This document shows positions 6,248 through 59,806 of a DNA stretch of 64,000 bases, piece after piece (positions within the stretch are counted from its first letter, which is position 1; each line of letters opens with the position of its first letter). Made by a program: the position numbers and the translations under genes. Origin of the DNA: Euglena gracilis. Its lineage: Eukaryota. The stretch covers positions 38,301,703 to 38,365,702 of the forward strand of contig CP154954.1 of NCBI GenBank assembly GCA_039621445.1, given 5' to 3'. The notes beneath the pieces were generated by a model. That model saw only the letters and a program-made list of their open reading frames with translations. It searched no databases and was not told the DNA's origin.

Positions 6248-7112
6248 AAAGTGTCCCTACCCTTGAGTAGTGTTGTACACCTTGCCAAATTGGTGCTTGA
6301 AAACATCATCCCCAAACCAGAGCTCGGACTCTCATTCATTGGATGGATCGTGAGCCAAACAAACCAAAAAAATGTAAACCACACGGATCTCCGTTGCCTG
6401 TCTAATGGGTCAGATAGCCAAGTTGGCGTAAATTCATTTGCACAAACACGAGCGCATCAACGGAGCAATCACCGGGGGTGGTTCGGGACGCGGGGGGGGG
6501 GACGCGGGGAGGGACGCGGGGGGACGCGGGGGGGAACCGTGGCCCAACCACCCCCACACATTTCCTTTGGCGTCACCTAAATTTGTATGCAATTTTCCTT
6601 TGGTCGACCAAAAAATGTGCCCGGCCAAAATCCGGGACGCGGGGGGGACGCGGGGGGGGGGGGACGCGGAGGGGGGACGCGGGGGGAACACCCCCACTAT
6701 GGCGATTGCGCAAATCACTGGGGTCACAGCTTCTTTTATCTGATGACAATTACCACCCCTCCTCCGAAGGGTTATGTTGGGTGTTGCAGTTGAAAAGTGC
6801 CTCTTTTCCAAAAGGGAACTTCAATTACCACACACAACGGGGTCCATCCCCACCCAGTGTCTACCATGCCCCCCCATTTCAGACCTCCCCTCGGGAGCCA
6901 AATCCTAGGGGGGGGCCTAGGCCCCCCAGGACCGGCCAAAGGGCCGGCCTTTGGCCGGCCAGGGGGGGTCCCCAAAGGGTAAAGAAATGTTCCCAAACCC
7001 AAGACATGTTTGATTTCCGCCAAAAAAAAAGGTCGATTAACTGGGGGGGCCACAAGCGATTATCCGTTTTTCGATTAACCATGGTTAATTGTCCCCCCCA
7101 CAAACGATCAAT

Positions 7113-8332
7113 TGTAACCGTGAATTGAGGCCCGGCGCCTGCCCTGTATTTCGTGGGTGTGAACACGAAATACAGGGCGTTATTTTCAATTCACGAATAC
7201 AGGCTGTATTTGTGAATTGGGTATTCACGAAATACAGGCTGTATTTCGTGAATTGTATTTTTTTGTTTTTAAACAGCTTCTGAAACTAGAAACCTTCTTG
7301 CATCACATCGTCTGAAGTAATTCAGAAAAAAACCAAATGCACAAAGCAAAAGAAAATTGAATGGCATGTCCTCGGTGATAAATGAGGGCGGTGCACAACT
7401 AGTGCAACGTCAAATAGCAAAGTGCCGTGGATTTATGCTGGGAAAGCTGACGAGGTTTGCACGAATGACACACCCATGACCCATGTTCGGGCTCATGGCA
7501 TAAATGCACACAACACCAGTGGTATGAAAGGGAACAAGCATCGCACTGCACTCGATTTCAAGGAGGTGAGCAAATGCGGATTGCTCTGTCCCTGCCATTC
7601 CGGACGCTTTCTTTTTGGCAGCCTCCAGCAGAAGGTTATCGTGCAGGGGGTCAACGGCAGGGTTCTTTCTGTTCTCCCAACCCTGCTTAATTGTGGCCAA
7701 AAATTCAGCAACTTTTGGGGGTTGCGTCAACGTTCTGTCCATGGTGTTTGCCGCTTTCTTCGCTATTTTTTGGAGAACAGAGTGAGGAGAAACACGGTGT
7801 GAAGGTGCGAAAATAGCACTAAAAAGCTCTAAAAAACAAAGAGCATTGTGGGGGGCCTTTGCGGGGGGACCGGCCGCCTTCGGCACCGCCCCCCCCCCCA
7901 AAGTGCCTCCCTATAACTTGGCCTTACATCCATATCTCATTTTCCAGGACCAGGGGTGTGTTATCAATGTGTTCCGGGTCATCTGGACAATGTTTTCACA
8001 TTTTGGTTTCAATTCACGGAATACAGGGCGTTATTTTCAATTCACGAATACAGGCTGTATTTGTGAATTGGGTATTCACGAAATACAGGCTGTATTTCGT
8101 GAATTGGATTTTTTGAAAATTTTGGGCAAAAAAAAGCCCCAAAAGTGCCCGAAACCATGGCGTGAAGCACATCAACGAAATACAGGGCAGGCGCCGGGCC
8201 TCTTAATTAACGGTTACAGAAAAATCGTGGGCTATAACCCGTATACAGGCCGTATAACGGGTCAAGGGCGCCTACGGCGCCCTTGACCCGTTATACGGCC
8301 TGTATACGGGTTATGCCCACGATTTTTATATA
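7113..8332 (-). mobile_element. TSD-less hairpin-ended element, family A (Crypton-like, internally deleted)
   Basis: IR tgtaaccgtgaattgaggcccggcgcctgccctgtatttcg at the left end, with its partner subterminal at about 8176-8218; near-perfect hairpin 8220-8327 with ggcgcc-tac-ggcgcc apex; no TSD relative to the empty site in 4708-5407. Confidence 0.8.
7399..7742 (-). pseudogene. Remnant ORF: N-terminus homologous to the 20984 ORF, fused out of frame to the C-terminal half of a PHD finger
   Basis: 7742-7560 reads MDRTLTQPPKVAEFLATIK...PAVDPL...EQSAFAHLLE; an alternative frame at 7557-7459 reads NRVQCDACSLSYHWCCVHLCHEPEHGSWVCHSC (CxxCxxxxHxxC...WxCxxC). Confidence 0.75.
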
Positions 8333-8737
8333 AACTGGGGGGGTCACAAGCGATTAACCGTTTTTCGATTAACCATCCAACCCTGGTGCAGGGGCGACCA
8401 CGGCACGAAGGCGCCGTGGTCGCCCCTGGGCCCCCCTAAAACCTTGGCCCAAAACACTGTTCTTGTTTGAAACCGTGTTTTGGGCGAAGATTTAAGACTT
8501 TTAAAGTCTCGAAATCGGCCCAAACACGGTTTCAGTGGTAGAACCCCTTTGGAGACCTCCCAACTCAACCCAACTGTCGACTTCAAAACCTGGGGGGGGG
8601 TGAAGAAGCCATTGGGGGTGTTCTCCCCGCGTCCCCCCCGCATCCCCCCTCCGCGTCCCCCCGCGTCCCGGATTTTGGCCGGGCACATTTTTTGGTCGAC
8701 CAAAGGAAAATTACATACAATTTTTGGTGACGCCAAT

Positions 8738-9196
8738 GGAGGCTAGGCGCGCCGCTCGGGGGGGTCCGGGACCCCCCCCTCCCCCCCCCCCCCGCGCGGC
8801 CCCTGCGCGGCCGCCCGCGCGGCCGCTCGCCCCTCCCTGGACCCCCCCCCTCCCCCCACTGTGCCTAGCATAGCCAAGAAAAAAAAATTTTGGTGAAAAA
8901 ATCGCGATTTTTTGAGGCCCAAAAATGACCAAAAATGACCATTTTCGGACACAAAATGGCAAATTTGGGGGCCGCGCGCTCTGCGCGCGGCCAAAAAAGC
9001 ACTTTTTTGGTCAAAAATGGCCCCAAAATAGCAAAAAAATGCCCACTTTTTGGACCGAAAATCACCGATATTAGGATGCGTTCCGCCCGCGCGGCCACCC
9101 TCGGACCCCCTTTCCCCCCCCCCCCCCCGCGCGGCCGCCCGCGCGGCCGCTCGCCCCCCCCCCTCAACACCCCCCCCCCCGCTGTGCCTAGCCTCC
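8738..9196. mobile_element. PIF/Harbinger-like MITE copy 2, TSD aat
   Basis: Same TIR and body as 5801-6247. Confidence 0.85.
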
Positions 9197-10111: not shown

Positions 10112-10284
10112 CAGGGCTGACGTTTTTTTTTGTTTTAAAACAAAGCAAAAAAACTTTTATGAATAAAAAACGGTTTAAAAACGTTTTTTTGTTTCAAAAA
10201 AGAGTGTTTTTTTTAAATAAAACACTGCAAATAGGAAAAAAACTTGTTTAAAAACACTTGTTTTAAAACAATGCCTCAGCCCTG
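10112..10284. mobile_element. hAT-like MITE (TIR cagggctga...tcagccctg), 8-bp TSD ggaggacg
   Basis: Perfect TSD at 10104-10111 and 10285-10292; second copy at 19355-19525. Confidence 0.9.
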
Positions 10285-10765
10285 GGAGGACGGGGGTCCA
10301 AAAACCCAAAGTTCACCGCCCGATATCCAAAACCGAGGGGGGGGTCGTATATGGGGGGCATGGTAAATTTTTCCTGACGAGCGCAAAAAAAGTTGCAAAA
10401 ACAAGGATGTCCGCCCCCACGATGGGGGGTTGGTACGCCGTGGCGAGGGGGTCCGAATAGGGGGGGGGGAGTGGGGGAAAAAGGATTGGCGAGGGGGTCG
10501 GCAACCAGGGGGGGGGGGGGGGGTGTACCATGGTTATCCAACAAAATTTTCGTTCAAAAAATCGCGAAAATCGCCGGTGGCGTGGCGAGGGGGTCCGGCC
10601 AGGGGGGGGAGGGGGGTAAATGGCGTGGCGAGCCCCTCGGAGAGGGGGGGGGGGAGGGGTGTACCAACCCCCCGATGGTCCCACATCCCTTTGCCCGGCT
10701 GCCTTCAATGGAGTCTCAAAGACCTTTTTGTTGACTGGTGTCCCACCCCCCAGATGGTGTTCCAT

Positions 10766-11148: not shown

Positions 11149-14100
11149 CATGCCCACCCTGTCGTTGGACTGGGTGTGCCGCACTATTGGGCTGTGCATC
11201 GAACAAAATTTTTCTGCGTCCCCCCCCGGACCCCACCTCCCCTGGGGGTGCCTTCTATTTCCAAAACAGGGCCATTTTTTTGTACCAAAATTGTATATCC
11301 ACCCCAGTGGTCCCCAAATGGTAAATTTCATTGGGGTTGTACCCCCTGCGACCCCCCACCACCGCACATGGAGGGTTTCCGCAACCCAATAGGGGCCAAA
11401 AAATGACCTGATTATCATGCCCCCCCCCTCATACCACCTCTTCCCCCTAATTGACCCCCCCCAATTGACCAAACGCCCCGGAGAAAATTTTTTGAACCCC
11501 CCCCCCTAATTGACTGCCCAGGGGGATTCTGTAGCACCCCTTATTTGACGGCACCCGCCCCCCCTAATTGACGCCCCCCTCCCCCCCCTAATTGAACCCC
11601 CCCTAATTGACCAAAAGGGGGGTGACCGTGGAGAGGGGCCCCGGGCGGATTCCTGTGGGTGCTCATCCTGGGGGTGATGCCGACCTGGTCGGCCCGACCA
11701 CCTGGTCGGCCCGACCATGGTCGGGCCGACCAGGTCGATAACTACCCCTGGGGGTGATACCGACCAGGTCGGTATCACCCCCAGAAATCTGCATTACCCC
11801 CCCCTCTTTGGAAATTTAACCCCCCCCCCGGGTTTCCAAAAGATGAGATCAACCTGCACCCGAAAAGGGGTTGGCAGATAAAAGGGGTTTATTTTGTTAA
11901 TGAAAGGGATAGGGTTAGGTCGACTTGCACCCGAAAAAGGGTTGGCAGATAAAAGGGGTTTATTTTGTTAATGAAAGGGATAGGGTTAGGTCGACTTGCA
12001 CCCGAAAAAGGGTTGGCAGATAAAAGGGGTTTATTTTGTTAATGAAAGGGATAGGGTTAGGTCGACTTGCACCCGAAAAAGGGTTGGCAAATAAAAGGGG
12101 TTTATTTTGTTAATGAAAGGGATAGGGTTAGGTCGACTTGCACCCGAAAAGGGGTTGGCAGATAAAAGGGGTTTATTTTGTTAATGAAAGGGATAGGGTT
12201 AGGTCGACTTGCACCCGAAAAAGGGTTGGCAGATAAAAGGGGTTTATTTTGTTAATGAAAGGGATAGGGTTAGGTCGACTTGCACCCGAAAAGGGGTTGG
12301 CAGATAAAAGGGGTTGGCAGATAAAAGGGTTTATTTTGTTAATGAAAGGGATAGGGTTAGGTCGACTTGCACCCGAGAAGGGGTTGGCAGATAAAAGGGG
12401 TTGGCAGATAAAAGGATAAAAGGGGTTGATTTTGTTAATGAAAGGGATAGGGTTAGGTCGACTTGCACCCGAGAAGGGGTTGGCAGATAAAAGGGGTTGG
12501 CAGATAAAAGGATAAAAGGGGTTGATTTTGTTAATGAAAGGGATAGGGTTAGGTCGACTTGCACCCGAAAAGGGGTTGGCAGATAAAAGGGGTTGGCGGA
12601 TAAAAGGGGTTTATTTTGTTAATGAAAGGGATAGGGTTAGGTCGACTTGCACCCGAGAAGGGGTTGGCAGAAAAATGGGGTTTATTTTGTTAATGAAAGG
12701 GATAGGTTTAGGTCGACTTGCACCCGAAAAGGGGTTGGCAGATAAAAGGGGTTTGTGAATGAAAGGGATAGGGTTAGGTCGACTTGCACCCGAAAAAGGG
12801 TTGGCAAATAAAAGGGGTTTATTTTGTTAATGAAAGGGACAGGGTTAGGTCGACTTGCACCCGAAAAGGGGTTGGCAGATAAAAGGGGTTGGCAGATAAA
12901 AGGATAAAAGGGGTTGATTTTGCTAATGAAAGGGATAGGGTTTGGTCGACTTGCACCCGAGAAGGGGTTGGCAGATAAAAGGGGTTGGCAGATAAAAGGG
13001 GTTGATTTTGTTAATGAAAGGGATAGGGTTAGGTCGACTTGCACCCGAGAAGGGGTTGGCAGATAAAAGCGGTTGGCAGATAAAAGGGGTTGATGTTGTT
13101 AATGAAAGGGATAGGGTTTGGTCGACTTGCACCCGAGAAGGGGTTGGCAGATAAAAGGGGTTTATTTTGTTAATGAAAGGGATAGGGGTCGACTTGCACC
13201 CGAAAAGGGGTTGGCAGATAAAAGGGGTTTATTTTGTTAATGAAAGGGATAGGGTTAGGTCGACTTGCACCCGAAAAAGGGTTGGCAGATAAAAGGGGTT
13301 TATTTTGTTAATGAAAGGGATAGGGTTAGGTCGACTTGCACCCGAAAAAGGGTTGGCAAATAAAAGGGGTTTATTTTGTTAATGAAAGGGATAGGGTTAG
13401 GTCGACTTGCACCCGAAAAGGGGTTGGCAGATAAAAGGGGTTTATTTTGTTAATGAAAGGGATAGGGTTAGGTCGACTTGCACCCGAAAAAGGGTTGGCA
13501 GATAAAAGGGGTTTATTTTGTTAATGAAAGGGATAGGGTTAGGTCGACTTGCACCCGAAAAGGGGTTGGCAGATAAAAGGGGTTGGCAGATAAAAGGGTT
13601 TATTTTGTTAATGAAAGGGATAGGGTTAGGTCGACTTGCACCCGAGAAGGGGTTGGCAGATAAAAGGGGTTGGCAGATAAAAGGATAAAAGGGGTTGATT
13701 TTGTTAATGAAAGGGATAGGGTTAGGTCGACTTGCACCCGAGAAGGGGTTGGCAGATAAAAGGGGTTGGCAGATAAAAGGATAAAAGGGGTTGATTTTGT
13801 TAATGAAAGGGATAGGGTTAGGTCGACTTGCACCCGAAAAGGGGTTGGCAGATAAAAGGGGTTGGCGGATAAAAGGGGTTTATTTTGTTAATGAAAGGGA
13901 TAGGGTTAGGTCGACTTGCACCCGAGAAGGGGTTGGCAGAAAAATGGGGTTTATTTTGTTAATGAAAGGGATAGGTTTAGGTCGACTTGCACCCGAAAAG
14001 GGGTTGGCAGATAAAAGGGGTTTGTGAATGAAAGGGATAGGGTTAGGTCGACTTGCACCCGAAAAAGGGTTGGCAAATAAAAGGGGTTTATTTTGTTAAT

Positions 14101-17100
14101 GAAAGGGACAGGGTTAGGTCGACTTGCACCCGAAAAGGGGTTGGCAGATAAAAGGGGTTGGCAGATAAAAGGATAAAAGGGGTTGATTTTGCTAATGAAA
14201 GGGATAGGGTTTGGTCGACTTGCACCCGAGAAGGGGTTGGCAGATAAAAGGGGTTGGCAGATAAAAGGGGTTGATTTTGTTAATGAAAGGGATAGGGTTA
14301 GGTCGACTTGCACCCGAGAAGGGGTTGGCAGATAAAAGCGGTTGGCAGATAAAAGGGGTTGATGTTGTTAATGAAAGGGATAGGGTTTGGTCGACTTGCA
14401 CCCGAGAAGGGGTTGGCAGATAAAAGGGGTTTATTTTGTTAATGAAAGGGATAGGGGTCGACTTGCACCCGAAAAGGGGTTGGCAGATAAAAGGGGTTTA
14501 TTTTGTTAATGAAAGGGATAGGGTTAGGTCGACTTGCACCCGAGAAGGGGTTGGCAGATAAAAGGGGTTGGCGGATAAAAGGGGTTTATTTTGTTAATGA
14601 AAGGGATAGGGTTAGGTCGACTTGCACCCGAGAAGGGGTTGGCAGACAAAAGGGGTTGGCAGATAAAAGGGGTTGATTTTGTTAATGAAAGGGATAGGGT
14701 TAGGTCGACTTGCACCCGAAAAGGGGTTGGCAGATAAAAGGGGTTTATTTTGTTAATGAAAGGGATAGGGTTAGGTCGACTTGCACCCGAAAAGGGGTTG
14801 GCAGATAAAAGGGGTTGGCAGATAAAAGGGGTTTATTTTGTTAATGAAAGGGATAGGGTTAGGTCGACTTGCACCCGAAAAGGGGTTGGCAGATAAAAGG
14901 GGTTGGCAGATAAAAGGATAAAAGGGGTTTATTTTGTTAATGAAAGGGATAGGGTTAGGTCGACTTGCACCCGAGAAGGGGTTGGCAGATAAAAGGGGTT
15001 GGCAGATAAAAGGATAAAAGGGGTTGATTTTGTTAATGAAAGGGATAGGGTTAGGTCGACTTGCACCCGAAAAGGGGTTGGCAGATAAAAGGGGTTGGCA
15101 GATAAAAGGGGTTTATTTTGTTAATGAAAGGGATAGGGTTAGGTCGACTTGCACCCGAGAAGGGGTTAAAAAAAAAATGGGGTTTATTTTGTTAATGAAA
15201 GGGATAGGGTTAGGTCGACTTGCACCCGAAAAGGGGTTGGCAGATAAAAGGGGTTTGTGAATGAAAGGGATAGGGTTAGGTCGCGTCGCACCCGAAGAAA
15301 AAAGGGTTGGCAAATAAAAGGGGTTTATTTTGTTAATGAAAGGGATAGGGTTAGGTCGACTTGCACCCGAAAAGGGGTTGGCAGATAAAAGGGGTTGGCA
15401 GATAAAAGGATAAAAGGGGTTGATTTTGTTAATGAAAGGGATAGGGTTAGGTCGACTTGCACCCGAGAAGGGGTTGGCAGATAAAAGGGGTTGGCAGATA
15501 AAAGGGGTTGATTTTGTTAATGAAAGGGATAGGGTTAGGTCGACTTGCACCCGAGAAGGGGCAGATAAAAGAGATTGGCAGATAAAAGGGGTTTATTTTG
15601 TTAATGAAAGGGATAGGGTTAGGTCGACTTGCACCCGAGAAGGGGTTGGCAGAAAAATGGGGTTTATTTTGTTAATGAAAGGGATAGGTTTTAGGTCGAC
15701 TTGCACCCGAAAAAGGGTTGGCAGATAAAAGGGGTTTATTTTGTTAATGAAAGGGATAGGGTTAGGTCGATTTGCACCCGAAAAGGGGTTGGCAGATAAA
15801 GGAGGTTGGCAGATAAAAGGGGTTTATTTTGTTAATGAAAGGGATAGGGTTAGGTCGACTTGCACCCGAGAAGGGGTTGGCAGATAAAAGGGGTTTATTT
15901 TGTTAATGAAAGGGATAGGGTTAGGTCGACGAAGGGGTTGGCAGATAAAAGGGGTTGGCAGATAAAAGGGGTTTATTTTGTTAATGAAAGGGATAGGGTT
16001 AGGTCGACTTGCACCCGAAAGGGGTTGGCAGAGATAAAAGGGGTTGGCAGATAGGGGTTTATTTTGTTAATGAAAGGGATAGGGTTAGGTCGACTTGCAC
16101 CCGAGAAGGGGTTGGCAGAAAAAGGGGGTTTATTTTGTTAATGAAAGGGATAGGGTTAGGTCGACTTGCACCCGAAAAGGGGTTGGCAGATAAAAGGGGT
16201 TTGTGAATGAAAGGGATAGGGTTAGGTCGACTTGCACCCGAAAAAGGGTTGGCAAATAAAAGGGGTTTATTTTGTTAATGAAAGGGATAGGGTTAGGTCG
16301 ACTTGCACCCGAAAAGGGGTTGGCAGATAAAAGGGGTTGGCAGATAAAAGGATAAAAGGGGTTGATTTTGCTAATGAAAGGGATAGGGTTTGGTCGACTT
16401 GCACCCGAGAAGGGGTTGGCAGATAAAAGGGGTTGGCAGATAAAAGGGGTTGATTTTGTTAATGAAAGGGATAGGGTTAGGTCGACTTGCACCCGAGAAG
16501 GGGTTGGCAGATAAAAGCGGTTGGCAGATAAAAGGGGTTGATGTTGTTAATGAAAGGGATAGGGTTTGGTCGACTTGCACCCGAGAAGGGGTTGGCAGAT
16601 AAAAGGGGTTTATTTTGTTAATGAAAGGGATAGGGGTCGACTTGCACCCGAAAAGGGGTTGGCAGATAAAAGGGGTTTATTTTGTTAATGAAAGGGATAG
16701 GGTTAGGTCGACTTGCACCCGAGAAGGGGTTGGCAGATAAAAGGGGTTGGCGGATAAAAGGGGTTTATTTTGTTAATGAAAGGGATAGGGTTAGGTCGAC
16801 TTGCACCCGAGAAGGGGTTGGCAGATAAAAGGGGTTGGCAGATAAAAGGGGTTGATTTTGTTAATGAAAGGGATAGGGTTAGGTCGACTTGCACCCGAAA
16901 AAGGGTTGGCAAATAAAAGGGGTTTATTTTGTTAATGAAAGGGATAGGGTTAGGTCGACTTGCACCCGAAAAGGGGTTGGCAGATAAAAGGGGTTTATTT
17001 TGTTAATGAAAGGGATAGGGTTAGGTCGACTTGCACCCGAAAAAGGGTTGGCAGATAAAAGGGGTTTATTTTGTTAATGAAAGGGATAGGGTTAGGTCGA

Positions 17101-19354
17101 CTTGCACCCGAGAAGGGGTTGGCAGATAAAAGGGGTTGGCAGATAAAAGGATAAAAGGGGTTGATTTTGTTAATGAAAGGGATAGGGTTAGGTCGACTTG
17201 CACCCGAAAAAGGGTTGGCAGATAAAAGGGGTTTATTTTGTTAATGAAAGGGATAGGGTTAGGTCGACTTGCACCCGAAAAAGGGTTGGCAGATAAAAGG
17301 GGTTTATTTTGTTAATGAAAGGGATAGGGTTAGGTCGACTTGCACCCGAAAAAGGGTTGGCAGATAAAAGGGGTTTATTTTGTTAATGAAAGGGATAGGG
17401 TTAGGTCGACTTGCACCCGAAAAGGGGTTGGCAGATAAAAGGGGTTGGCAGATAAAAGGGGTTTATTTTGTTAATGAAAGGGATAGGGTTAGGTCGACTT
17501 GCACCCGAGAAGGGGTTGGCAGATAAAAGGGGTTGGCAGATAAAAGGATAAAAGGGGTTGATTTTGTTAATGAAAGGGATAGGGTTAGGTCGACTTGCAC
17601 CCGAAAAAGGGTTGGCAGATAAAAGGGGTTTATTTTGTTAATGAAAGGGATAGGGTTAGGTCGACTTGCACCCGAAAAAGGGTTGGCAGATAAAAGGGGT
17701 TTATTTTGTTAATGAAAGGGATAGGGTTAGGTCGACTTGCACCCGAAAAAGGGTTGGCAGATAAAAGGGGTTTATTTTGTTAATGAAAGGGATAGGGTTA
17801 GGTCGACTTGCACCCGAAAAGGGGTTGGCAGATAAAAGGGGTTGGCAGATAAAAGGGGTTTATTTTGTTAATGAAAGGGATAGGGTTAGGTCGACTTGCA
17901 CCCGAGAAGGGGTTGGCAGATAAAAGGGGTTGGCAGATAAAAGGATAAAAGGGGTTGATTTTGTTAATGAAAGGGATAGGGTTAGGTCGACTTGCACCCG
18001 AGAAGGGGTTGGCAGATAAAAGGGGTTGGCAGATAAAAGGATAAAAGGGGTTGATTTTGTTAATGAAAGGGATAGGGTTAGGTCGACTTGCACCCGAAAA
18101 GGGGTTGGCAGATAAAAGGGGTTGGCGGATAAAAGGGGTTTATTTTGTTAATGAAAGGGATAGGGTTAGGTCGACTTGCACCCGAGAAGGGGTTGGCAGA
18201 AAAATGGGGTTTATTTTGTTAATGAAAGGGATAGGGTTAGGTCGACTTGCACCCGAAAAGGGGTTGGCAGATAAAAGGGGTTTGTGAATGAAAGGGATAG
18301 GGTTAGGTCGACTTGCACCCGAAAAAGGGTTGGCAAATAAAAGGGGTTTATTTTGTTAATGAAAGGGATAGGGTTAGGTCGACTTGCACCCGAAAAGGGG
18401 TTGGCAGATAAAAGGGGTTGGCAGATAAAAGGATAAAAGGGGTTGATTTTGCTAATGAAAGGGATAGGGTTTGGTCGACTTGCACCCGAGAAGGGGTTGG
18501 CAGATAAAAGGGGTTGGCAGATAAAAGGGGTTGATTTTGTTAATGAAAGGGATAGGGTTAGGTCGACTTGCACCCGAGAAGGGGTTGGCAGATAAAAGCG
18601 GTTGGCAGATAAAAGGGGTTGATTTTGTTAATGAAAGGGATAGGGTTTGGTCGACTTGCACCCGAGAAGGGGTTGGCAGATAAAAGGGGTTTATTTTGTT
18701 AATGAAAGGGATAGGGTTAGGTCGACTTGCACCCGAAAAAGGGTTGGCAGATAAAAGGGGTTTATTTTGTTAATGAAAGGGATAGGGTTAGGTCGACTTG
18801 CACCCGAAAAGGGGTTGGCAGATAAAAGGGGTTGGCAGATAAAAGGGTTTATTTTGTTAATGAAAGGGATAGGGTTTGGTCGACTTGCACCCGAGAAGGG
18901 GTTGGCAGATAAAAGGGGTTTATTTTGTTAATGAAAGGGATAAGGGTCGACTTGCACCCGAAAAGGGGTTGGCAGATAAAAGGGGTTTATTTTGTTAATG
19001 AAAGGGATAGGGTTAGGTCGACTTGCACCCGAGAAGGGGTTGGCAGATAAAAGGGGTTGGCGGATAAAAGGGGTTTATTTTGTTAATGAAAGGGATAGGG
19101 TTAGGTCGACTTGCACCCGAGAAGGGGTTGGCAGATAAAAGGGGTTGGCAGATAAAAGGGGTTGATTTTGTTAATGAAAGGGATAGGGTTAGGTCGACTT
19201 GCACCCGAGAAGGGGTTGGCAGATAAAAGGGGTTGGCAGATAAAAGGGGTTGATTTTGTAAATGAAAGGGATAGGGTTTGGTCGACTTGCACCCGAGAAG
19301 GGGTTGGCAGATAAAAGGGGTTTATTTTGCTAATGAAAGGGATAGGGTTAGGTC

Positions 19355-19525
19355 CAGGGCTGACGTTTTTTTTGTTTTAAAACAAAGCAAAAAAACTTTC
19401 ATGAATAAAAAGCAGTTTAAAAACGGTTTTTTGTTTCAAAAAAGAGTGTTTTTTTAAATAAAACACTGCAAATAGGAAAAAAACTTGTTTAAAAACAATT
19501 GTTTTAAAACAATGCCTCAGCCCTG
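19355..19525. mobile_element. hAT-like MITE inserted in the satellite, 8-bp TSD gttaggtc
   Basis: Perfect TSD; copy of 10112-10284. Confidence 0.9.
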
Positions 19526-19787
19526 GTTAGGTCGACTTGCACCCGAAAAGGGGTTGGCAGATAAAAGGGGTTGGCAGATAAAAGGGGTTGATTTTGTTAA
19601 TGAAAGGGATAGGGTTAGGTCGACTTGCACCCGAGAAGGGGTTGGCAGATAAAAGGGGTTTATTTTGTTAATGAAAGGGATAGGGTTAGGTCGACTTGCA
19701 CCCGAAAAAGGGTTGGCAGATAAAAGGGGTTAGGTCGACTTGCACCCGAAAAAGGGTTGGCAGATAAAAGGGGTTTATTTTGTTAAT

Positions 19788-21415
19788 AAAACCGTTAACC
19801 GTTCACGGGCTTCCCCACGTGAGGAAACGGGGTGCGTTCACGGGTGCGCACTACGGCACCCGTGAACGGACCCCGTTTTCACATATGCGCACCCGTGGTC
19901 GGTTCACGGGTGCACGCACGGCAGCCGTGGACGGAATTTTGCCTTTAAAAAAGGGAAAATATTTATGCAGTAGGGAAGAGGATTTGAAACAAATGGCGAA
20001 CCTGGTGAACTTGAGGGGTGGGGGCAGGAATGCAAGAGGTGGCATAGGGAACTGACACGCGACAAACTAAATTTCGGTGCGAGGCACATGCTCGCGATGC
20101 CTTTCGGCATGGTCAGAGGAACAACGGGACGGATAACTCAACGACAACCCTGACAAATCCACGCTTTTTTCGGCGCGCGACGCAGCTCAGCACACACAAA
20201 ATGATACGTCTCGCCACAAACGGAACAACGAACACTTTTGGCTGCACCCACATCCGTGTCACTAAAAGCACGCACACCACACCGTGGGCACAACGGAGTA
20301 GAGGACGGGGGTGCGGGTGGGAAAACGGAAGGGACAGCAGACAGAATTTGGATAACGGTGGCGCCTTCCGGCGCCGGGTCTGCGTTCTGTGTTCCCTTCG
20401 GCAGCCTTCAAAACTGTGAGCAACTCGTCCGCCTGCAAAACTGTGTTTGTCAACCCACCCTTGGCCTCCATTGCCTTTTTGGCCCTTTCGTGCGTGACGA
20501 GTGGCTTCATTAACGCATTGAACTGCGGGAACTGGGACACAGACGATGGTACAATGATGGCATAAACGGGAGCCAATGCCTTGTAAATGTTGCTTACAGC
20601 ATTTACATAGGTCCGAAAACTGGACACTGGCATGGAGCGAAGGCGCCCATCTTTTCCTGCCTTCTCCTGCCTTGTCTGGACCCAGGCATCGGCTTCCTGC
20701 TGCGTCTTGAAAAGTTCACGAGCATCAACGCACCATCTGGCCCATCCCACCAAAACTTCGTCCAAAGAGCCAAAAACAATGCCATGCCGGTTGCAAACAT
20801 CCATATACTCCAAAAAACACTTTACTGCGGCATGGTTCTTGGGGCCCAAGTCACAATTTTGACCACCGGTGGGGAGACTGCCTAAAAGGGCATCCACTGC
20901 AGCAGCTCCTAGGGAGCTGGCACCACGTAAAACAGCCAGAAATTCATCTACGTTGGGGGGGCGGGGCATCTGTGCTTCCATCATGTTGGCAAAACGCTTC
21001 ATTGGACTGTGGGGAAAAGCAGCAGACAGACAGATACACAAATGTTAAAAACCCCAAAAAATTCAAATTCCGATCACGGGTAACACCTTGCGCAACCGTG
21101 GTCGGTTCACGGGTGCACGCACGGCAGCCGTGGACGGAAATTCCGTTCACGGGTGCGCACTACGGCACCCGTGAACGGCCAAAGTTCACCCGTGAACGCC
21201 AAAAACGAGATTTTTGACCCCCTAGGCATCTCGTTAGGAAGCGCTTGCCTACTGCGAGGAAGCCCGTGAACTTGGTTAACGGTTTTAAGACAAAAGCGGG
21301 GTCCGATCACGATTCCCGGTGGAGAAACGGGGGGCGCCTACGGCCTACGGCCTACGCCTACGGCGCCCCCCGTTTCTCCACCGGGAATCGTGATCGGACC
21401 CCGCTTTTTCTTATA
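19788..21415 (-). mobile_element. TSD-less hairpin-ended element, family B (Crypton-like, internally deleted)
   Basis: Inserted in the satellite unit gttaat|gaaaggg without duplication; IR taaaaccgttaaccgttcacgggcttcc with subterminal partner at about 21258-21287; hairpin about 21287-21413 with (gcctacg)n loop; ends ttata. Confidence 0.85.
20138..20984 (-). pseudogene. Putative tyrosine-recombinase N-terminal region (about 195 aa) joined out of frame to a linker and a complete C-terminal PHD finger
   Basis: ORF MMEAQMPRPPNVDEFLAVLR...KDGRLRSMPVSSFRTYVNAVSNIYK...LQADELLTVL; a second frame ending at the stop 20140-20138 reads CPRCGVRAFSDTDVGAAKSVRCSVCGETYHFVCAELRRAPKKAWICQGCR (C4HC3). The recombinase call is by resemblance only; catalytic residues are absent. 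Confidence 0.7.
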
Positions 21416-24400
21416 GAAAGGGACAGGGTTAGGTCGACTTGCACCCGAAAAGGGGTTGGCAGATAAAAGGGGTTGGCAGATAAAAGGATAAAAGGGGTTG
21501 ATTTTGTTAATGAAAGGGATAGGGTTTGGTCGACTTGCACCCGAGAAGGGGTTGGCAGATAAAAGGGGTTGGCAGATAAAAGGGGTTGATTTTGTTAATG
21601 AAAAGCATAGGGTTTGGTCGACTTGCACCCGAGAAGGGGTTGGCAGATAAAAGGGGTTGGCAGATAAAAGGGGTTGATTTTGTTAATGAAAGGGATAGGG
21701 TTTGGTCGACTTGCACCCGAGAAGGGGTTGGCAGATAAAAGGGGTTTATTTTGTTAATGAAAGGGATAGGGGTCGACTTGCACCCGAAAAGGGGTTGGCA
21801 GATAAAAGGGGTTTATTTTGTTAATGAAAGGGATAGGGTTAGGTCGACTTGCACCCGAAAAGGGGTTGGCAGATAAAAGGGGTTGGCAGATAAAAGGATA
21901 AAAGGGGTTGATTTTGTTAATGAAAGGGATAGGGTTTGGTCGACTTGCACCCGAGAAGGGGTTGGCAGATAAAAGGGGTTGGCAGATAAAAGGGGTTGAT
22001 TTTGTTAATGAAAAGCATAGGGTTTGGTCGACTTGCACCCGAGAAGGGGTTGGCAGATAAAAGGGGTTGGCAGATAAAAGGGGTTGATTTTGTTAATGAA
22101 AGGGATAGGGTTTGGTCGACTTGCACCCGAGAAGGGGTTGGCAGATAAAAGGGGTTTATTTTGTTAATGAAAGGGATAGGGGTCGACTTGCACCCGAAAA
22201 GGGGTTGGCAGATAAAAGGGGTTGGCAGATAAAAGGGGTTGATTTTGTTAATGAAAGGGATAGGGTTAGGTCGACTTGCACCCGAGAAGGGGTTGGCGGA
22301 TAAAAGGGGTTGGCAGATAAAAGGGGTTTATTTTGTTAATGAAAGGGATAGGGTTAGGTCGACTTGCACCCGAGAAGGGGTTGGCAGATAAAAGGGGTTT
22401 ATTTTGTTAATGAAAGGGATAGGGTTAGGTCGACTTGCACCCGAAAAAGGGTTGGCAGATAAAAGGGGTTTATTTTGTTAATGAAAGGGATAGGGTTAGG
22501 TCGACTTGCACCCGAAAAGGGGTTGGTAGATAAAAGGGGTTGGCAGATAAAAGGGGTTGATTTTGTTAATGAAAGGGATAGGGTTAGGTCGACTTGCACC
22601 CGAGAAGGGGTTGGCAGATAAAAGGGGTTGGCAGATAAAAGGGGTTGATTTTGTTGATGAAAGGGATAGGATTAGGTCGACTTGCACCCGAGAAGGGGTT
22701 GGCAGATAAAAGGGGTTTATTTTGTTAATGAAAGGGATAGGGTTAGGTCGACTTGCACCCGAAAAGGGGTTGGCAGATAAAAGGGGTTGGCAGATAAAAG
22801 GGGTTGATTTTGTTAATGAAAGGGATAGGGTTAGGTCGACTTGCACCCGAAAAGGGGTGGGCAGATAAAAGGGGTTGGCAGATAAAAGGGGATTATTTTG
22901 TTAATGAAAGGGATAGGGTTAGGTCGGCTTGCACCCGAAAAGGGGTTGGCAGGTAAAAGGGGTTGGCAGATAAAAGGGGTTGATTTTGTTAATGAAACGG
23001 ATAGGGTTAGGTCGACTTGCACCCGAGAAGGGGTTGGCAGATAAAAGGGGTTTAATGTGACACCCCCCCTATTTGTCACCCCCCCAATAGTCGCCCCCCC
23101 TTGGGGGGGCGACAATTAGGGGGGGTTACCCATGGACCCATGGAAATGTGGGGTAAATTGAGTAACTCCCCCCCAATTGTCACCCCCCCTAATAGTCGCC
23201 AGGGGGGTCAAAACACTCCCGAGGGGTGCTATATAGGGTGGGGGGTCACGTTATTAAATTTTTTTAATTAAATTTTTACCTTACTTAACAATTGACCTAT
23301 TCAAACGAAGGGGGGGGGGCTTAAATTTCCAAAAGGTGGGGGGGGTAATGCGGATTTCTGGGGGTCGGGCCGACCAGGTCGGCATCACCCCCAGAGGTCG
23401 GTATCCCACCAACAGGGGTCGGGCCGACCACAGGTCGGGCCGACCAGGTCGGCATCACCCCCAGGATGAGCACCCACAGGAATCCGCACGGAGCCGTGGA
23501 GAGGTCCCACGTTGGAGATCAGGCAGTAGACTTTGGTCATTTTGACCCCCCCCCCCCTATGGCGAAGTTCACCGTTTGAAAGTTCACCGGGGGGTCCCGG
23601 ACCCCCTCCCCCCCCCCTCTGCCTAACCCATCGGTGAACTTCACCGGTGAAGTTCAACAAGAGAGTACTTTTTTTGGCCAAAAATGACCAAAAATGGCAT
23701 TTGGGTAAGTTTTCGGAAATTTCGATAAAATTCCATGAAGCATCAACCTCAAAATGACCATTTTGAGAGGAAAGGGGCAAATTTTTACCCATGAAAATTT
23801 CACCCCCAACCATCAAAACGGTGAAGTTCACCGGTGAACTTCACCAGTGAACTTCACCACCGAAAGCACCCCCCCCCCGGTGAATGTTCACCGGTGAACT
23901 TCACCGGGGGGGTCCACAGCCCCCCCACCCCTGCCTAAACTCCGTTCAATCAAGGGGGGGGGAGGTGGAATAAGACCCCCTGCCAAAATCCCAGGGGGGT
24001 GTTATTTGGCATGGTAGGAATTGGCACCCAAAGGAATCAAAACTACCAAAAAAAACGTGTGATAAATTCTTGACTGGATCTATTTTTGGACCCAAAAGTT
24101 TTCAGGACAGAGTCGTCATCCAGAAAACCCGTGGAGGGGGACGGCGGTTCTGCCCTGAACCCGGCGTCCCAAACGCCGGTTTAACCAGAAAAGGGGGAGG
24201 GGGGACGGTTTTGGGGACCCGAACTCGACAGCCTAGCCCCATTTGCCCCCCCCCCCCAGTGCAAAACAGTGGATGTGGGCGGGGGGCAATGGGTGGCCGG
24301 CTGACTAGTCGGCTGACCACCCAGTTGGATGGCCGACTAGGCCTAGTTGGTAGCTGGTCGGCGAGACGGGGTGGGGTGGGGGGGGGAGTGGTGGGTAGTC

Positions 24401-33559: not shown

Positions 33560-36500
33560 CGACACCACTGTCACCGGAGCCAGTGCTGGTGAACACCCTG
33601 CAGTAGCGAAACTTTGGCAATTATTTTTTTGGAATAATTCGGGGCGGGGGGGGGGCATGGGGGGAGGCGTGATTTTTCAGGGACAGATTGCCTCAATGCC
33701 AGCAAATTGGGGGGTGCCAAAAAGTGCGACCAGCCCCCGGGACCAGGTCGGCTGGGTTCCCCACCCCCAAAAACCCCACTGTCACCGGAACCACTGCTGG
33801 TAAAACACCCCGCAATAACAAAATTTTGGCCATTTTTCAGTGTAATTTGGGGCGGGGGCGGGGGGTGGGGGGGGGGGGCGTGATTTTTTGGGGCCAGATT
33901 GCCTCAATGCCAGGAATTTGGGGGGTGCCAAAAAGTGCGACCAGCCCCCGGGACCAGGTCGGCTGGGTTCCCCACCCCCAAAAACCCCACTGTCACCGGA
34001 ACCACTGCTGGTAAAACACCCCGCAATAGCGAAATTTTGGTAATTTTTAAGTGTAATTCGGGGCGGGGGGGGGGGGGGGGGGGGGCGTGATTTTTTGGGG
34101 CCAGATTGCCTCAATGCCAGGAATTTGGGGGGGGCAAAAAAGTGCGACCAGCCCCCGGGACCAGGTCGGCTGGGTTCCCCACCCCCAAAAACCCCACTGT
34201 CACCGGAACCACTGCTGTTAAAACACCCCGCAAAAGCGAAATTTTGGCCATTTTTAAGTGTAATTCGGGGCGGGGGCGGGGGGTGGGGGGGGGGCGTGAT
34301 TCTTTGGGGCCAGATTGCCTCAATGCCAGGAATTTGGGGGGTGCCAAAAAGTGCGACCAGGCCCCCGGGACCAGGTCGGCTGGGTTCCCCGCCGCCAAAA
34401 ACCCCACTGTCACCGGAACCACTGCTGTTAAAACACCCCGCAATAGCGAAATTTTGGTAATTTTTAAGTGTAATTCGGGGCGGGGGCGGGGGGTGGGGGG
34501 GGTCTTTGGGGCCAGATTGCCTCAATGCCAGGAATTTGGGGGGTGCCAAAAAGTGCGACCAGCCCCCGGGACCAGGTCGGCTGGGTTCCCCACCGCCAAA
34601 AACCCCACTGTCACCGGAACCACTGCTGGTAAAACACCCCGCAAAAGCGAAATTTTGGTAATTTTTAAGTGTAATTCGGGGCGGGGGCGGGGGGTGGGGG
34701 GGCGTGATTTTTTGGGGCCAGATTGCCTCAATGGCAGGTAATTGGGGGTGCCAAAAAGTGCGACCAGCCCCCGGGACCAGGTCAGCTGGGTTCCCCGCCC
34801 CCAAAAACCCCACTGTCACCGGAACCACTGCTGTTAAAACACCCCGCAATAGCGAAATTTTGGTAATTTTTAAGTGTAATTCGGGGCGGGGGCGGGGGGT
34901 GGGGGGGGGCGTGATTTTTTGGGGCCAGATTGCCTCAATGGCAGGAATTTGGGGGGTGCCAAAAAGTGCGACCAGCCCCCGGGACCAGGTCGGCTGGGTT
35001 CCCCACCCCCAAAAACCCCACTGTCACCGGAACCACTGCTGTTAAAACACCCCGCAATAGCGAAATTTTGGCCATTTTTAAGTGTAATTCGGGGCGGGGG
35101 CGGGGGGTGGGGGGGGGCGTGATTTTTTGGGGCCAGATTGCCTCAATGCCAGGAAATTGGGGGGTGCCAAAAAGTGCGACCAGGCCCCCGGGACCAGGTC
35201 AGCTGGGTTCCCCGCCCCCAAAAACCCCACTGTCACCGGAACCACTGCTGTTAAAACACCCCGCAATAGCGAAATTTTGGTAATTTTTAAGTGTAATTCG
35301 GGGCGGGGGCGGGGGGTGGGGGGGGGGCGTGATTTTTTGGGGCCAGATTGCCTCAATGCCAGGAATTTGGGGGGTGCCAAAAAGTGCGACCAGCCCCCGG
35401 GACCAGGTCGGCTGGGTTCCCCACCGCCAAAAACCCCACTGTCACCGGAACCACTGCTGGTAAAACACCCCGCAAAAGCGAAATTTTGGTAATTTTTAAG
35501 TGTAATTCGGGGCGGGGGCGGGGGGTGGGGGGGCGTGATTTTTTGGGGCCAGATTGCCTCAATGCCAGGAAATTGGGGGTGCCAAAAAGTGCGACCAGGC
35601 CCCCGGGACCAGGTCAGCTGGGTTCCCCGCCCCCAAAAACCCCACTGTCACCGGAACCACTGCTGTTAAAACACCCCGCAATAGCGAAATTTTGGTAATT
35701 TTTAAGTGTAATTCGGGGCGGGGGCGGGGGGTGGGGGGGGGGCGTGATTTTTTTGGGGCCAGATTGCCTCAATGGCAGGAATTTGGGGGGTGCCAAAAAG
35801 TGCGACCAGCCCCCGGGACCAGGTCGGCTGGGTTCCCCACCGCCAAAAACCCCACTGTCACCGGAAGCACTGCTGTTAAAACACCCCGCAATAGCGAAAT
35901 TTTGGCCATTTTTAAGTGTAATTCGGGGCGGGAGCGGGGGGTGGGGGGGGGCGTGATTTTTTGGGGCCAGATTCCCTCAATGCCAGGAAATTGGGGGGTG
36001 CCAAAAAGTGCGACCAGGCCCCCGGGACCAGGTCAGCTGGGTTCCCCACCCCCAAAAACCCCACTGTCACCGGAACCACTGCTGGTAAAACACCCCGCAA
36101 TAGCGAAATTTTGGTAATTTTTAAGTGTAATACGGAGCGGGGGCGGGGGGTGGGGGGGGGCGTGATTTTTTGGGGCCAGATTGCCTCAATGCCAGGAATT
36201 TGGGGGGTGCCAAAAAGTGCGACCAGCCCCCGGGACCAGGTCGGCTGGGTTCCCCACCCCCAAAAACCCCACTGTCACCGGAACCACTGCTGTTAAAACA
36301 CCCCAAAAGCGAAATTTTGGCCATTTTTTAAGTGTAATTCGGGGCGGGGGCAAGGGGTGGGGGGGGGCGTGATTTTTTGGGGCCAGATTGCCTCAATGCC
36401 AGGAATTTGGGGGGTGCCAAAAAGTGCGACCAGCCCCCGGGACCAGGTCGGCTGGGTTCCCCACCGCCAAAAACCCCACTGTCACCGGAACCACTGATGG

Positions 36501-51500: not shown

Positions 51501-53480
51501 TGCCTCAATGCCAGGAATTTGGGGGGTGCCAAAAAGTGCGACCAGCCCCCGGGACCAGGTCGGCTGGGTTCCCCACCCCCAAAAACCCCACTGTCACCGG
51601 AACCACTGCTGGTAAAACACCCCGCAATAGCGAAATTTTGGTAATTTTTAAGTGTAATTCGGGGCGGGGGCGGGGGTGGGGGGGGCGTGATTTTTTGGGG
51701 CCAGATTGCCTCAATGCCAGGAAATTGGGGGGTGCCAAAAAGTGCGACCAGCCCCCGGGACCAGGTCGGCTGGGTTCCCCGCCCCCAAAAACCCCACTGT
51801 CACCGGAACCACTGCTGGTAAAACACCCCGCAATAGCGAAATTTTGGTAATTTTTAAGTGTAATTCGGGGCGGGGGCGGGTGGGGGGGGCGTGATTTTTG
51901 GGGGCCAGATTGCCTCAATGCCAGGAATTAGGGGGGTGGCAAAAAGTGCGACCAGCCCCCGGGACCAGGTCGGCTGGGTTCCCCGCCCCCAAAAACCCCA
52001 CTGTCACCGGAACCACTGCTGGTAAAACACCCCGCAATAGTGAAATTTTGGTAATTTTTAAGTGTAATTCGGGGCGGGGGGTGGGGGGGGGCGTGATTTT
52101 TTGGGGCCAGATTGCCTCAATGGCAGGAATTTGGGGGGTGCCAAAAGGTGCGACCAGCCCCCGGGACCAGGTCGGGTGGGTTCCCCGCCCCCAAAAACCC
52201 CACTGTCACCGGAACCACTGCTGGTAAAACACCCCGCAATAGCGAAATTTTAGTAGTTTTTAAGTGTAATTCGGGGCGGGTGGGGGGGGCGTGATTTTTG
52301 GGGGCCAGATTGCCTCAATGCCAGGAATTAGGGGGGTGCCAAAAAGTGCGACCAGCCCCCGCTACCAGGTCGGCTGGGTTCCCCACCTCCAAAAACCCCA
52401 CTGTCACTGGAACCACTGCTGGTAAAACACCCCGCAATAGCGAAATTTTGGTAATTTTTAAGTGTAATACGGAGCGGGGGCGGGGGGTGGGGGGGGCGTG
52501 ATTTTTTGGGGCCAGATTGCCTCAATGCCAGGAAATTGGGGGGTGCCCAAAAGTGCGACCAGCCCCCGGGAGCAGGTCGGCTGGGTTCCCCGCCCCCAAA
52601 AACCCCACTGTCACCGGAACCACTGCCGGCAAAACACCGATGGTAAAACACCCCCGCAATAGCGAAATTTTGGTTATTTTTAAGTGTAATTCGGGGCGGG
52701 GGGGGGGGGGGGGTGGGGGGGGTGATTTTTCGGGGCCAGATTGCCTCAATGCCACGAAATTGGGGGGTGCCAAAAAGTGCGACCAGCCCCCGGGACCAGG
52801 TCGGCTGGGTTCCCCACCCCCAAAAACCCCACTGTCTCCGGAACCACTGCTGGTAAAACACCCCGCAATAGCGAAATTTTGGCCATTTTTCAGTATAATT
52901 CGGGGCGGGGGCGGGGGGTGGGGGGGCGTGATTTTTTGGGGCCAGATTGCCTCAATGGCAGGAATTTGGGGGGTGCCAAAAAGTGCGACCAGCCCCCGGG
53001 ACCAGGTCGGCTGGGTTCCCCACCCCCAAAAACCCCACTGTCACCGGAACCACTGCTGGTAAAACACCCCGCAATAGCGAAATTTTGGCCATTTTTCAGT
53101 ATAATTCGGGGCGGGGGCGGGGGGTGGGGGGGGCGTGATTTTTTGGGGCCAGATTGCCTCAATGGCAGGAATTTGGGGGGTGCCAAAGAGTGCGACCAGC
53201 CCCCGGGACCAGGTCGGCTGGGTTCCCCGCCCCCAAAAACCCCACTGTCACCGGAACCACTGAGGGTAAAACACCCCGCAATTGTGTAAGTTTGGCCATT
53301 TTTCAGTATAATTCGGGGCGGGGGGGTGGGGGGGGCGTGAGTTTTTGGGAATTGGGGGGTGCCAAAAAGTGCGACCGTGCCCCCGGGACCAGGTCAGCTG
53401 GGTTCCCCACCCCCATTGTCACCGGTAAAACACCTTACAATAGGGATTTTTGACAGTTTTTCAGTATAATTCGGGGTGGG
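33560..53480. repeat. Satellite of about 207-bp units, roughly 95 copies, G-run rich, inside a predicted GT-AG intron (33471-53867)
   Basis: Unit gggccagattgcctcaatgccaggaattt...taattcggggcgggggcgggggg repeated head to tail; degenerate at both edges. Confidence 0.95.
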
Positions 53481-59404: not shown

Positions 59405-59439
<35 letters not shown>

Positions 59440-59478
59440 CATCATCATCATCATCATCATCATCATTATTATTGTTGC

Positions 59479-59532
<54 letters not shown>

Positions 59533-59593
59533 TGCTATTATTATCATTATCATCATCATCATCATTATTCTTATTCTTATTCTTCTTCTTCTT

Positions 59594-59624
<31 letters not shown>

Positions 59625-59769
59625 TTATCATCATCATCATCATCATCATCATTATTATTATTATTACCATCATCATCATCATCATCATTATTATTATTAC
59701 CATCATCATCATCATCATCATCATTATTATTATTACCATCATCATCATCATCATCATTATTATTATTAC

Positions 59770-59806
<37 letters not shown>

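Follow-up and report, generated by a model that had tools for sequence, protein, structure and literature searches.

A hairpin-ended insert in a Euglena gracilis satellite array probably derives by internal deletion from a tyrosine-recombinase/PHD transposon

The window analysed, a stretch of 64,000 nucleotides (64 kb) from contig CP154954.1 of the Euglena gracilis assembly GCA_039621445.1, is eukaryotic-looking and extremely repeat-rich; tRNA and Rfam scans of the window gave no match. Tandem-repeat analysis delimits in it, at positions 11855-23052 of the forward strand, an array of a 71/88-bp satellite, which is host to an insert of 1,628 bp (19788-21415, gene on the minus strand), referred to as E1. 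Its precise insertion in the satellite, its homologies and the evidence for a deletion mark E1, probably, as an internally deleted, non-autonomous copy of a transposon whose gene joined a tyrosine recombinase to a PHD finger. A second element of the same architecture, E2, diverged and more deeply deleted, was recognised at 7114-8332, with its gene on the minus strand, by tblastn with family proteins and by the anatomy of its ends.

E1 splits the satellite motif GTTAAT/GAAAGGG at the point marked by the slash, with the left joint at 19787/19788, the right joint at 21415/21416 and zero duplicated bases. In the motif listing of the window the unsplit motif occurs at 100 satellite sites at least, and the variant GTTAATAAA at none of the sites listed, the E1 junction itself excepted. 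Since the motif is split by 1,628 bp here and intact at all those sites, the insertion is base-precise and free of duplication, as the first-pass annotation of this DNA, made from the sequence alone, had stated. The direct repeat common to both joints is AAA at most, and none of 4 bp or more was found, for a sample of two insertions, that of E2 included. No further copy of E1 was detected within the window by nucleotide comparison. Empty-site joints seen in contigs of public sequencing runs were considered as evidence of excision and rejected, being ordinary satellite monomers.

The minus-strand open reading frame (ORF) of E1 starts from an ATG at 21002 and is 246 amino acids long; the earlier annotation had given its strand correctly and its length, 195 amino acids, too short. 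It has no Pfam match, and residues 1-205 alone are homologous to relatives. These 205 codons (20388-21002, minus strand) correspond to an N-terminal extension, a core-binding domain and the first helix of a catalytic domain. The ORF is 92% identical to the database protein P0001, and its residues 1-205 are identical at 204 of 205 positions to P0151, a cluster mate of P0001; the EukProt label of one cluster mate of P0001 describes it as a Euglena gracilis transcript, by which the host would probably be a euglenid. Past residue 205, P0151 continues as PFWVQRRNVLLLGYTTGYRGEVLRRL...GTMKN, a segment which includes PFWVQRRNVL (residues 206-215) and TTGYRGEV and which, judged by its motifs, would hold the box-I arginine and the beta-hairpin lysine of tyrosine recombinases.

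An exhaustive profile search collected 208 family representatives at E<=1e-3, 117 of them at E<=1e-10, most being fragments on short contigs. The contigs of the relatives measure 1.0-3.2 kb, and this protein is their sole coding content. In a Pfam scan none of 39 family members matched DUF3504 or DUF3435, two families derived from Cryptons, and none matched a reverse transcriptase or RNase H. DUF3504, DUF3435 and oomycete core-binding clusters are found among the neighbours in a protein atlas, at 0.94-0.96, and were taken as a lead only. A protein-pattern search of JGI metagenome contigs and IMG/VR yielded no confirmed relatives. Two family members, P0025 and P0007, are database entries under the name of the carnivorous plant Genlisea aurea, on contigs of about 1-1.9 kb; contamination from trapped protists seems a likelier source of these entries than the plant itself.

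Not the truncated product of E1 but a full-length relative, P0009, was modelled with AlphaFold (pLDDT 88.6), from a 39-sequence alignment; by tblastn, P0009 is 35% identical to the window across 214 residues. The top Foldseek matches of the model were all Cre, with E-values from 6e-7 and probability 1.0. VIA-align placed Tre/Cre at the top, with a Z of 19.9 and a root-mean-square deviation of 3.8 A over 301 of 320 residues, model residues 27-408 and both domains being involved, and ranked XerH, Tn1549 Int, lambda Int and integron IntI after them. The parent protein of E1 is accordingly modelled, through this relative, as having the two-domain fold of the tyrosine recombinases (Cre/Int), the fold for which structure prediction had been recommended as a check. 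A helical segment that had been flagged as resembling a core-binding region does sit in the core-binding half of the Cre-like model.

Several columns of the 39-sequence alignment are conserved: R234 (36/39), K267 (28/30), K357 (17/19), D358 (20/20), R361 (19/23) and Y392 (17/18), together with the second R of the R-R pair in a K-D-x-x-R-R box (20/23); catalytic roles were given to the columns by motif order, not from superposed coordinates. On these grounds the catalytic signature of the family appears to be a variant of the canonical R...K...H-x-x-R...H/W...Y.

A zinc finger of the C4HC3 PHD type is encoded at 20141-20290, on the same minus strand and out of frame with the N-terminal ORF. Translation of 20138-20407 gives the complete pattern C-x2-C-x17-C-x2-C-x4-H-x2-C-x12-C-x2-C with W-I-C, the W standing two residues before the seventh ligand, so that the finger reported earlier at these positions is confirmed as whole and out of frame. 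It matches PF00628 with an E of 3.5e-4 and 21 bits, under the 24-bit cut-off. A search of PDB sequences with a 67-residue piece of E1 retrieved almost exclusively PHD fingers, that of MLL3 (2ysm) being the best (E 1.5e-4), followed by those of PHF21A, CHD4, KAT6A, TAF3 and ING proteins. A protein search with the PHD-bearing tail found no relatives. The finger would be expected to read chromatin.

Finger and N-terminal ORF derive from one gene, as had been supposed. The last nine residues of P0151, in frame, are those of the E1 finger (...KAWICQGCR), and P0131 (507 amino acids) consists of a recombinase domain and a C-terminal PHD finger, with matches just below the cut-off to PF00628 (E 6.8e-5, 23.2 bits) and PF13831 (E 3e-5). 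The out-of-frame tail of E1 and the tail of P0131 match with a pairwise E of 4e-8, every zinc ligand being invariant. Translation and the P0131 tail delimit at 20138-20385, minus strand, the C-terminal frame of the parent gene, made up of the end of the recombinase domain, a linker, the finger and a stop. P0009, P0174 and P0178 have no finger at the C-terminus, like most of the C-terminally complete relatives inspected, so that only certain lineages have the recombinase-PHD fusion.

The two frames of E1 meet at a frame-shifting junction, 20385-20388, located by the loose ends of contigs and by the end of the homology with P0151, where full-length copies have the catalytic domain. Contigs of four public sequencing runs were aligned to E1, contig depth not being taken as copy number. 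In all four runs contigs match E1 up to 20385 and then diverge; in two of the four, among the matches listed, the agreement of contigs with E1 begins at 20388, and the sequence on the far side of that point departs from it. The sequence adjoining 20388, translated by hand, reads PFWVQRRNVL, identical to residues 206-215 of P0151. The loose end at 20385, translated likewise, gives ...ARWSAYLNWH, in frame with the PHD finger, and probably includes the nucleophile tyrosine. The homology between E1 and P0151 ends at residue 205, that is at base 20388, and E1 itself encodes no catalytic domain. The contig breaks and the continuation of P0151 together indicate that E1 lost this domain through a frame-shifting internal deletion, in agreement with the deletion postulated from the sequence.

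P0151 is a separate, in-frame deletion that ends in the same PHD tail, so that, with E1 and E2, at least three independent deletion derivatives can be counted. Between the N-terminal part and the PHD finger, where a Rep/helicase or DDE domain would have pointed to another kind of element, recombinase sequence alone was seen; neither these nor a reverse transcriptase appeared there. E1 or near-identical copies are present in 20 of 24 runs from 17 studies, among the runs listed. One RNA-library run (X20) contains 41 E1 contigs, which, given possible DNA carry-over, were not taken as proof of transcription.

The ends of E1 are elaborate and asymmetric. A repeat search and a four-way alignment of terminal inverted repeats (TIRs) identified the left TIR at 19788-19827, with a AACCGTTAA box and a GTTCACGGG half-site, and its partner in a subterminal position on the right, at 21245-21288, distinguished from the left copy by an inserted 2-nt AA. 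Positions 19787-19800 and 21274-21287 are 100% complementary, and pairing extends to about 40 nt with the 2-nt indel; the pairing of a left-terminal repeat with a subterminal partner, noticed at first reading, is thus real. Right of this partner lies the terminal hairpin (21292-21408), with 56-nt arms (21292-21347 and 21353-21408) that are 93% complementary and an apex of the form GGCGCC-(GCCTACG repeats)-GGCGCC, the GCCTACG heptads being at the apex. Its predicted folding energy is -73.8 kcal/mol (z -15.9), and none of 200 shuffles was as stable. The hairpin is followed by TTTTTCTTATA, and the right end of E1 is CTTATA; both the hairpin with its gcctacg apex and the closing TATA had been recorded in the first-pass annotation and hold up.

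Inward of the terminal repeats, palindromic sites resembling lox are found in two pairs, arranged as direct repeats on either side of the gene. Site A has 14-nt inverted arms and the 8-nt spacer GCACTACG; its left copy (19834-19869) is 100% identical to the right one (21143-21178). Site B has a 14-7-14 layout; its left copy (19900-19934) lies inside a 54-nt direct repeat (19886-19939; 96% identity between the repeats), and the right one is at 21103-21137. In all, two 14-8-14 and two 14-7-14 palindromes are present. An imperfect palindrome of 120 nt, centred on the left site A, occupies the left end of E1, and the region 19788-19935 folds with a z of -7.4. The 9-mer GTTCACGGG occurs 9 times in the window, against 0.6 expected, every time in the non-coding ends of E1; with its flanking bases it makes up 14-nt half-sites, paired in inverted orientation. 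Tyrosine-recombinase sites are described as 11-13-bp inverted repeats around 6-8-bp spacers (PMC3212892), and the geometry of sites A and B, taken from the sequence, matches this layout.

Every monomer of the satellite array (11855-23052; for example at 19627-19640) carries, 25-32 nt from the point corresponding to the E1 insertion, GCACCCGAGAAGGG or a close variant, which differs from the 14-nt half-site of E1 by 2 mismatches (2-3 across the monomer variants). This may be due to chance or may be a pseudo-site attracting E1; the probability of a chance occurrence is a few per cent by rough estimate, and the resemblance was not used as evidence. A DNA-pattern search for the lox-like site in metagenome contigs returned five loci, all of them unrelated short palindromes with no recombinase and no other similarity.

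E2 repeats this anatomy without detectable nucleotide similarity to E1. Its left TIR (7114-7161) is the inverse of a right subterminal repeat (8168-8218), in which the TIR alignment places the 2-nt AA insertion known from E1. A repeat search located two 100-nt direct-repeat blocks, 98% identical, on either side of the gene, the left one (7164-7263) next to the left TIR and the right one at 8015-8114; they hold palindromes of E2's own half-site, TTCACGAAATACAG, which occurs 8 times against 0.1 expected. The terminal hairpin (8221-8327) has 39-nt perfect inner arms, the apex GGCGCCTACGGCGCC and a predicted folding energy of -68.8 kcal/mol (z -17.8); it is followed by TTTTTATATA, with a T run and TATA. 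Two coding remnants were recovered on the minus strand by tblastn: the first 75 or so recombinase codons, whose start is now ATA (7554-7766; residues 1-74 of P0174, E 7e-6), and the second half of the PHD finger (7456-7554; residues 472-504 of P0131, 48% identity, E 4.8e-6), out of frame with them. E2 is inserted in another tandem repeat, with no duplication and with one flank substitution relative to the sole uninterrupted junction in the window (5342).

The hairpin apex GGCGCCTACGGCGCC is common to E1 and E2, the exact 11-mer GGCGCCTACGG being found in the window only at the two apexes. The two elements also share, in the four-way TIR alignment, the outer box AACCGT(T/G)AA and the 2-nt AA indel between left and right TIRs, and in both the hairpin lies upstream of the gene. 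In coding orientation, the layout of the group is: terminal hairpin, inverted repeat, lox-like direct-repeat block, recombinase-PHD gene, second block, second inverted repeat. That E1 and E2 have diverged and yet keep gene, ends and asymmetry together argues that the ends belong to the recombinase gene. Around E2 and its host repeat, a pair of 97-nt inverted repeats (6563-6659 and 8644-8740), 90% complementary and rich in GGGACGCGGGG units, may represent a larger foldback or TIR element that encloses the region.

E1 is read, with a probability estimated at roughly 0.78, as a dead, internally deleted copy of a DNA transposon, whose parent of about 2.2 kb had a single gene, for a tyrosine recombinase of the Cre fold that carried a PHD finger at its C-terminus. 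The results above establish the identity and fold of the protein, the deletion, the longer copies, and the end architecture with its conservation. A tyrosine-recombinase transposon as the parent, already put forward in the first-pass annotation, is upheld by P0151, by the fold of P0009, by the deletion evidence and by E2. Deprived by the deletion of its catalytic domain and of its frame, E1 could move only if a full-length relative supplied the enzyme.

A number of observations weigh against this reading. The E1 lineage was nowhere seen as a full-length copy from one end to the other; some 80 residues, from the end of the catalytic part of P0151 to the loose end at 20385, were never observed, and no circle junction, excision footprint or second flanked E1 insertion was recovered. 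The canonical signature is incomplete, the first His being replaced by Lys/Asp (K-D-x-x-R-R) and the second kept in 8 of 18 sequences. Of the 39 members, 8 match PF00589 at E<=1 (best 0.001), none of them reaching the gathering score of 27.1 bits; profile searches of PDB sequences with two alignments gave nothing significant, and the C-terminal motif also resembles a helix-turn-helix. The AlphaFold model of the 67-residue PHD piece, made from a two-sequence alignment, has a pLDDT of 70 and no Foldseek match at E<=0.001. Lastly, the terminal layout of E1 and E2 is also that of Helentrons (PMC4067079).

This last point suggests that E1 and E2 could be non-autonomous rolling-circle elements of the Helentron/Helitron2 type, which captured a recombinase-PHD gene and depend on a Rep/helicase encoded elsewhere. 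The 5' inverted repeat with a subterminal partner, the 3' stem-loop, the T runs and the lack of duplication would all fit (PMC4067079). A captured gene, however, would hardly be kept by two diverged elements in the same orientation to the hairpin, and the size of the gene family, with its catalytic Arg, Lys and Tyr conserved, is unexpected for decaying cargo. Moreover, the repeated half-sites, whose difference between the two elements parallels that between the proteins, form lox-like 14-8-14 palindromes, the insertions lie between T and G (E1) and between T and A (E2) rather than at the reported TT, for two cases, and no Rep-like sequence was seen, no genome-wide search having been made; a rolling-circle origin is therefore considered very unlikely. 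It is quite unlikely, too, that E1 is a composite, in which a circular recombinase cassette bounded by A sites integrated into an A-like site of a palindromic miniature inverted-repeat transposable element (MITE) that owned the TIRs and the hairpin. The two A sites are indeed 100% identical direct repeats flanking the gene, recombination of one with the other would leave a TIR-plus-hairpin remnant of about 320 bp, and one contig of run X2 has the hairpin end beside a different flank. On the other side, E2, though diverged, has outer and inner parts together, and the family-specific half-site of the inner repeats recurs in the outer TIRs, which speaks for a single unit that co-evolved; the window showed no solo remnant.

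Two further explanations dispense with a recombinase-only transposon. DIRS-like and mixed elements are reported to be abundant in Euglena gracilis (bioRxiv 10.64898/2026.05.21.726589), and DIRS elements also have inverted repeats, so that the recombinase might be the integrase module of a DIRS-like retrotransposon, and E1 a fragment of a longer retroelement. This is rendered highly improbable by the position of both deletion breakpoints inside the recombinase ORF, which leaves the parent room for one gene, by the same single-gene layout in E2, by the 1.0-3.2-kb contigs on which relatives code for this protein alone, and by the lack of any reverse transcriptase or RNase H match in the 39 members scanned. 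Even less credible is an insert that is not mobile at all, a piece of some host or viral gene that repair or a rearrangement had brought into the satellite: the window, extremely repeat-rich as it is, holds a single copy of E1, but the insertion is base-precise, the termini are structured, the element is present in 20 of the 24 runs listed, from 17 studies, with variant and longer copies, and the independent deletion derivatives number at least three (E1, P0151, E2).

If E1 and E2 stem from recombinase transposons, as preferred here, the recombinase would bind the repeated TTCACG-type half-sites in the terminal repeats, synapse both ends, and cut and rejoin them conservatively through a phosphotyrosine bond. 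The element would be excised, probably as a circle, and then integrated without target duplication. For the hairpin and the direct-repeat blocks, a role as accessory or arm-type sites or as substrates of folded DNA is conceivable, and the PHD finger might steer the element to particular chromatin, here tandem-repeat arrays; E1 and E2 both lie in such arrays, two cases that prove nothing on chromatin targeting. The recombination scheme is modelled on the proposal made for Cryptons, whose excision/integration model is consistent with the activity observed in Chlamydomonas (PMC9977147).

A bolder version is tentatively added, which is unlikely as a whole: a new superfamily, whose enzyme, besides recombining lox-like duplex sites, would act also on the conserved apex (GGCGCC-TAC-GGCGCC) of the terminal palindrome of about 115 nt, extruded as a hairpin or cruciform, and would be guided by its PHD finger to insert in heterochromatin made of tandem repeats. 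Folded-DNA chemistry of this kind is exemplified by integron attC sites, CTX-phage attP and telomere resolvases. If true, it would amount to a natural Cre/lox-like system native to the eukaryotic nucleus, with a defined 36-bp site.

Other features of the window are listed here for completeness. An AT-rich MITE of about 170 bp, with terminal inverted repeats that begin CAGGGCTGA, is present in two copies (19354-19524 and 10112-10285) that are 96% identical; on both sides of the one inside the satellite stands an 8-bp duplication, GTTAGGTC, of a hAT-like kind. A third long hairpin (54830-54976) was considered as an element of the E1 type and rejected: it is an unrelated foldback, dissimilar to the E1 and E2 hairpins, with 66-nt arms that are 94% complementary and flanking CCCCCCTGGTCACTCTAAATGGCCCCCC direct repeats, and has neither the apex motif nor the TIR box. 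An array of about 20 kb (33800-53400) consists of a G+C-rich tandem repeat of about 200 bp, open in several frames, with proline-rich pseudo-ORFs of up to 616 amino acids, and is probably satellite rather than coding. At 59300-59830, a long imperfect simple repeat of the trinucleotide type translates, whatever the frame, into stretches of I, D, N, S or H.

To our knowledge, no DNA transposons are less well understood than those of the Crypton class. PMC3212892 describes their ends as hard to define and their recombination sites as unknown, and the first observations of Crypton activity date from 2023 (PMC9977147). The literature search found no paper that links Euglena and Crypton transposons, and none on a recombinase-PHD transposon, supplementary files and Repbase/Dfam being outside its scope. 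The E1/E2 group offers base-precise ends, family-specific lox-like half-sites and a conserved hairpin apex; with a compact recombinase of about 440-510 residues, for which a confident Cre-like model is available, its mechanism is directly testable. The hairpin-bearing ends seem to mark an as yet undescribed structural type of recombinase transposon, for which a Repbase/Dfam entry may nonetheless exist. A fusion of a recombinase with a histone reader would exemplify chromatin-guided integration outside the chromodomain paradigm of retroelements, and a Cre-like enzyme native to eukaryotes, with a candidate 36-bp site, could interest genome engineers.

Among known systems, DIRS, Ngaro, VIPER and TATE elements resemble the group in being eukaryotic users of tyrosine recombinases, some of them in Euglenozoa (PMC6681497); they differ in carrying reverse transcriptase/RNase H, whereas E1 and E2 leave space for no gene but that of the recombinase. 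Helentrons and HINEs share with E1 and E2 the 5' inverted repeat with its subterminal 3' partner, the stem-loop, the T run and the absence of duplication, but they encode a Rep/helicase (with or without an endonuclease) and prefer TT (PMC4067079), while E1 and E2 carry a recombinase and are inserted between T and G and between T and A. Their 13-bp subterminal inverted repeats and short stem-loops also contrast with the 40-50-nt repeats and the hairpins of about 115 nt found here.

Cre, together with Tre, XerH and Tn1549 Int, provides the closest fold over both domains (Z 19.9), and the lox-like sites A and B, with 14-nt arms and spacers of 8 and 7 nt, extend the likeness to the DNA. The layout of loxP is 13-8-13. 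Sequence identity is only 12-14%, however, and the family differs by an N-terminal extension, by K-D-x-x-R-R in place of H-x-x-R and by the PHD finger; its recombinase belongs to a eukaryotic nuclear host and to a transposon context, and sites A and B are candidate sites.

Cryptons (CryptonF, S, A and I; PMC3212892) are similar in having one tyrosine-recombinase gene, no reverse transcriptase, no conventional target-site duplication, and non-autonomous copies derived by deletion (PMC3212892, PMC9977147). Those described in PMC3212892 have no TIRs and are bounded by terminal direct repeats of 4-6 bp, such as TATGG in CryptonS, whereas E1 and E2 have TIRs of 40-50 nt, a terminal hairpin of about 115 nt and subterminal direct-repeat blocks, and any terminal direct repeat is, in the two insertions, shorter than 4 bp. 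Accessory domains differ as well, those of Cryptons being GCR1_C or a separate C48 peptidase; the term 'PHD' is absent from PMC3212892. The Crypton label first attached to E1 therefore holds for a DNA element with a recombinase only, and fails for the TIRs, which are present, and for the 4-6-bp terminal direct repeats, which are missing. By the definition of the class, E1 and E2 are read as a Crypton-class, that is recombinase-only, group of DNA transposons, and possibly a new superfamily of tyrosine-recombinase DNA transposons.

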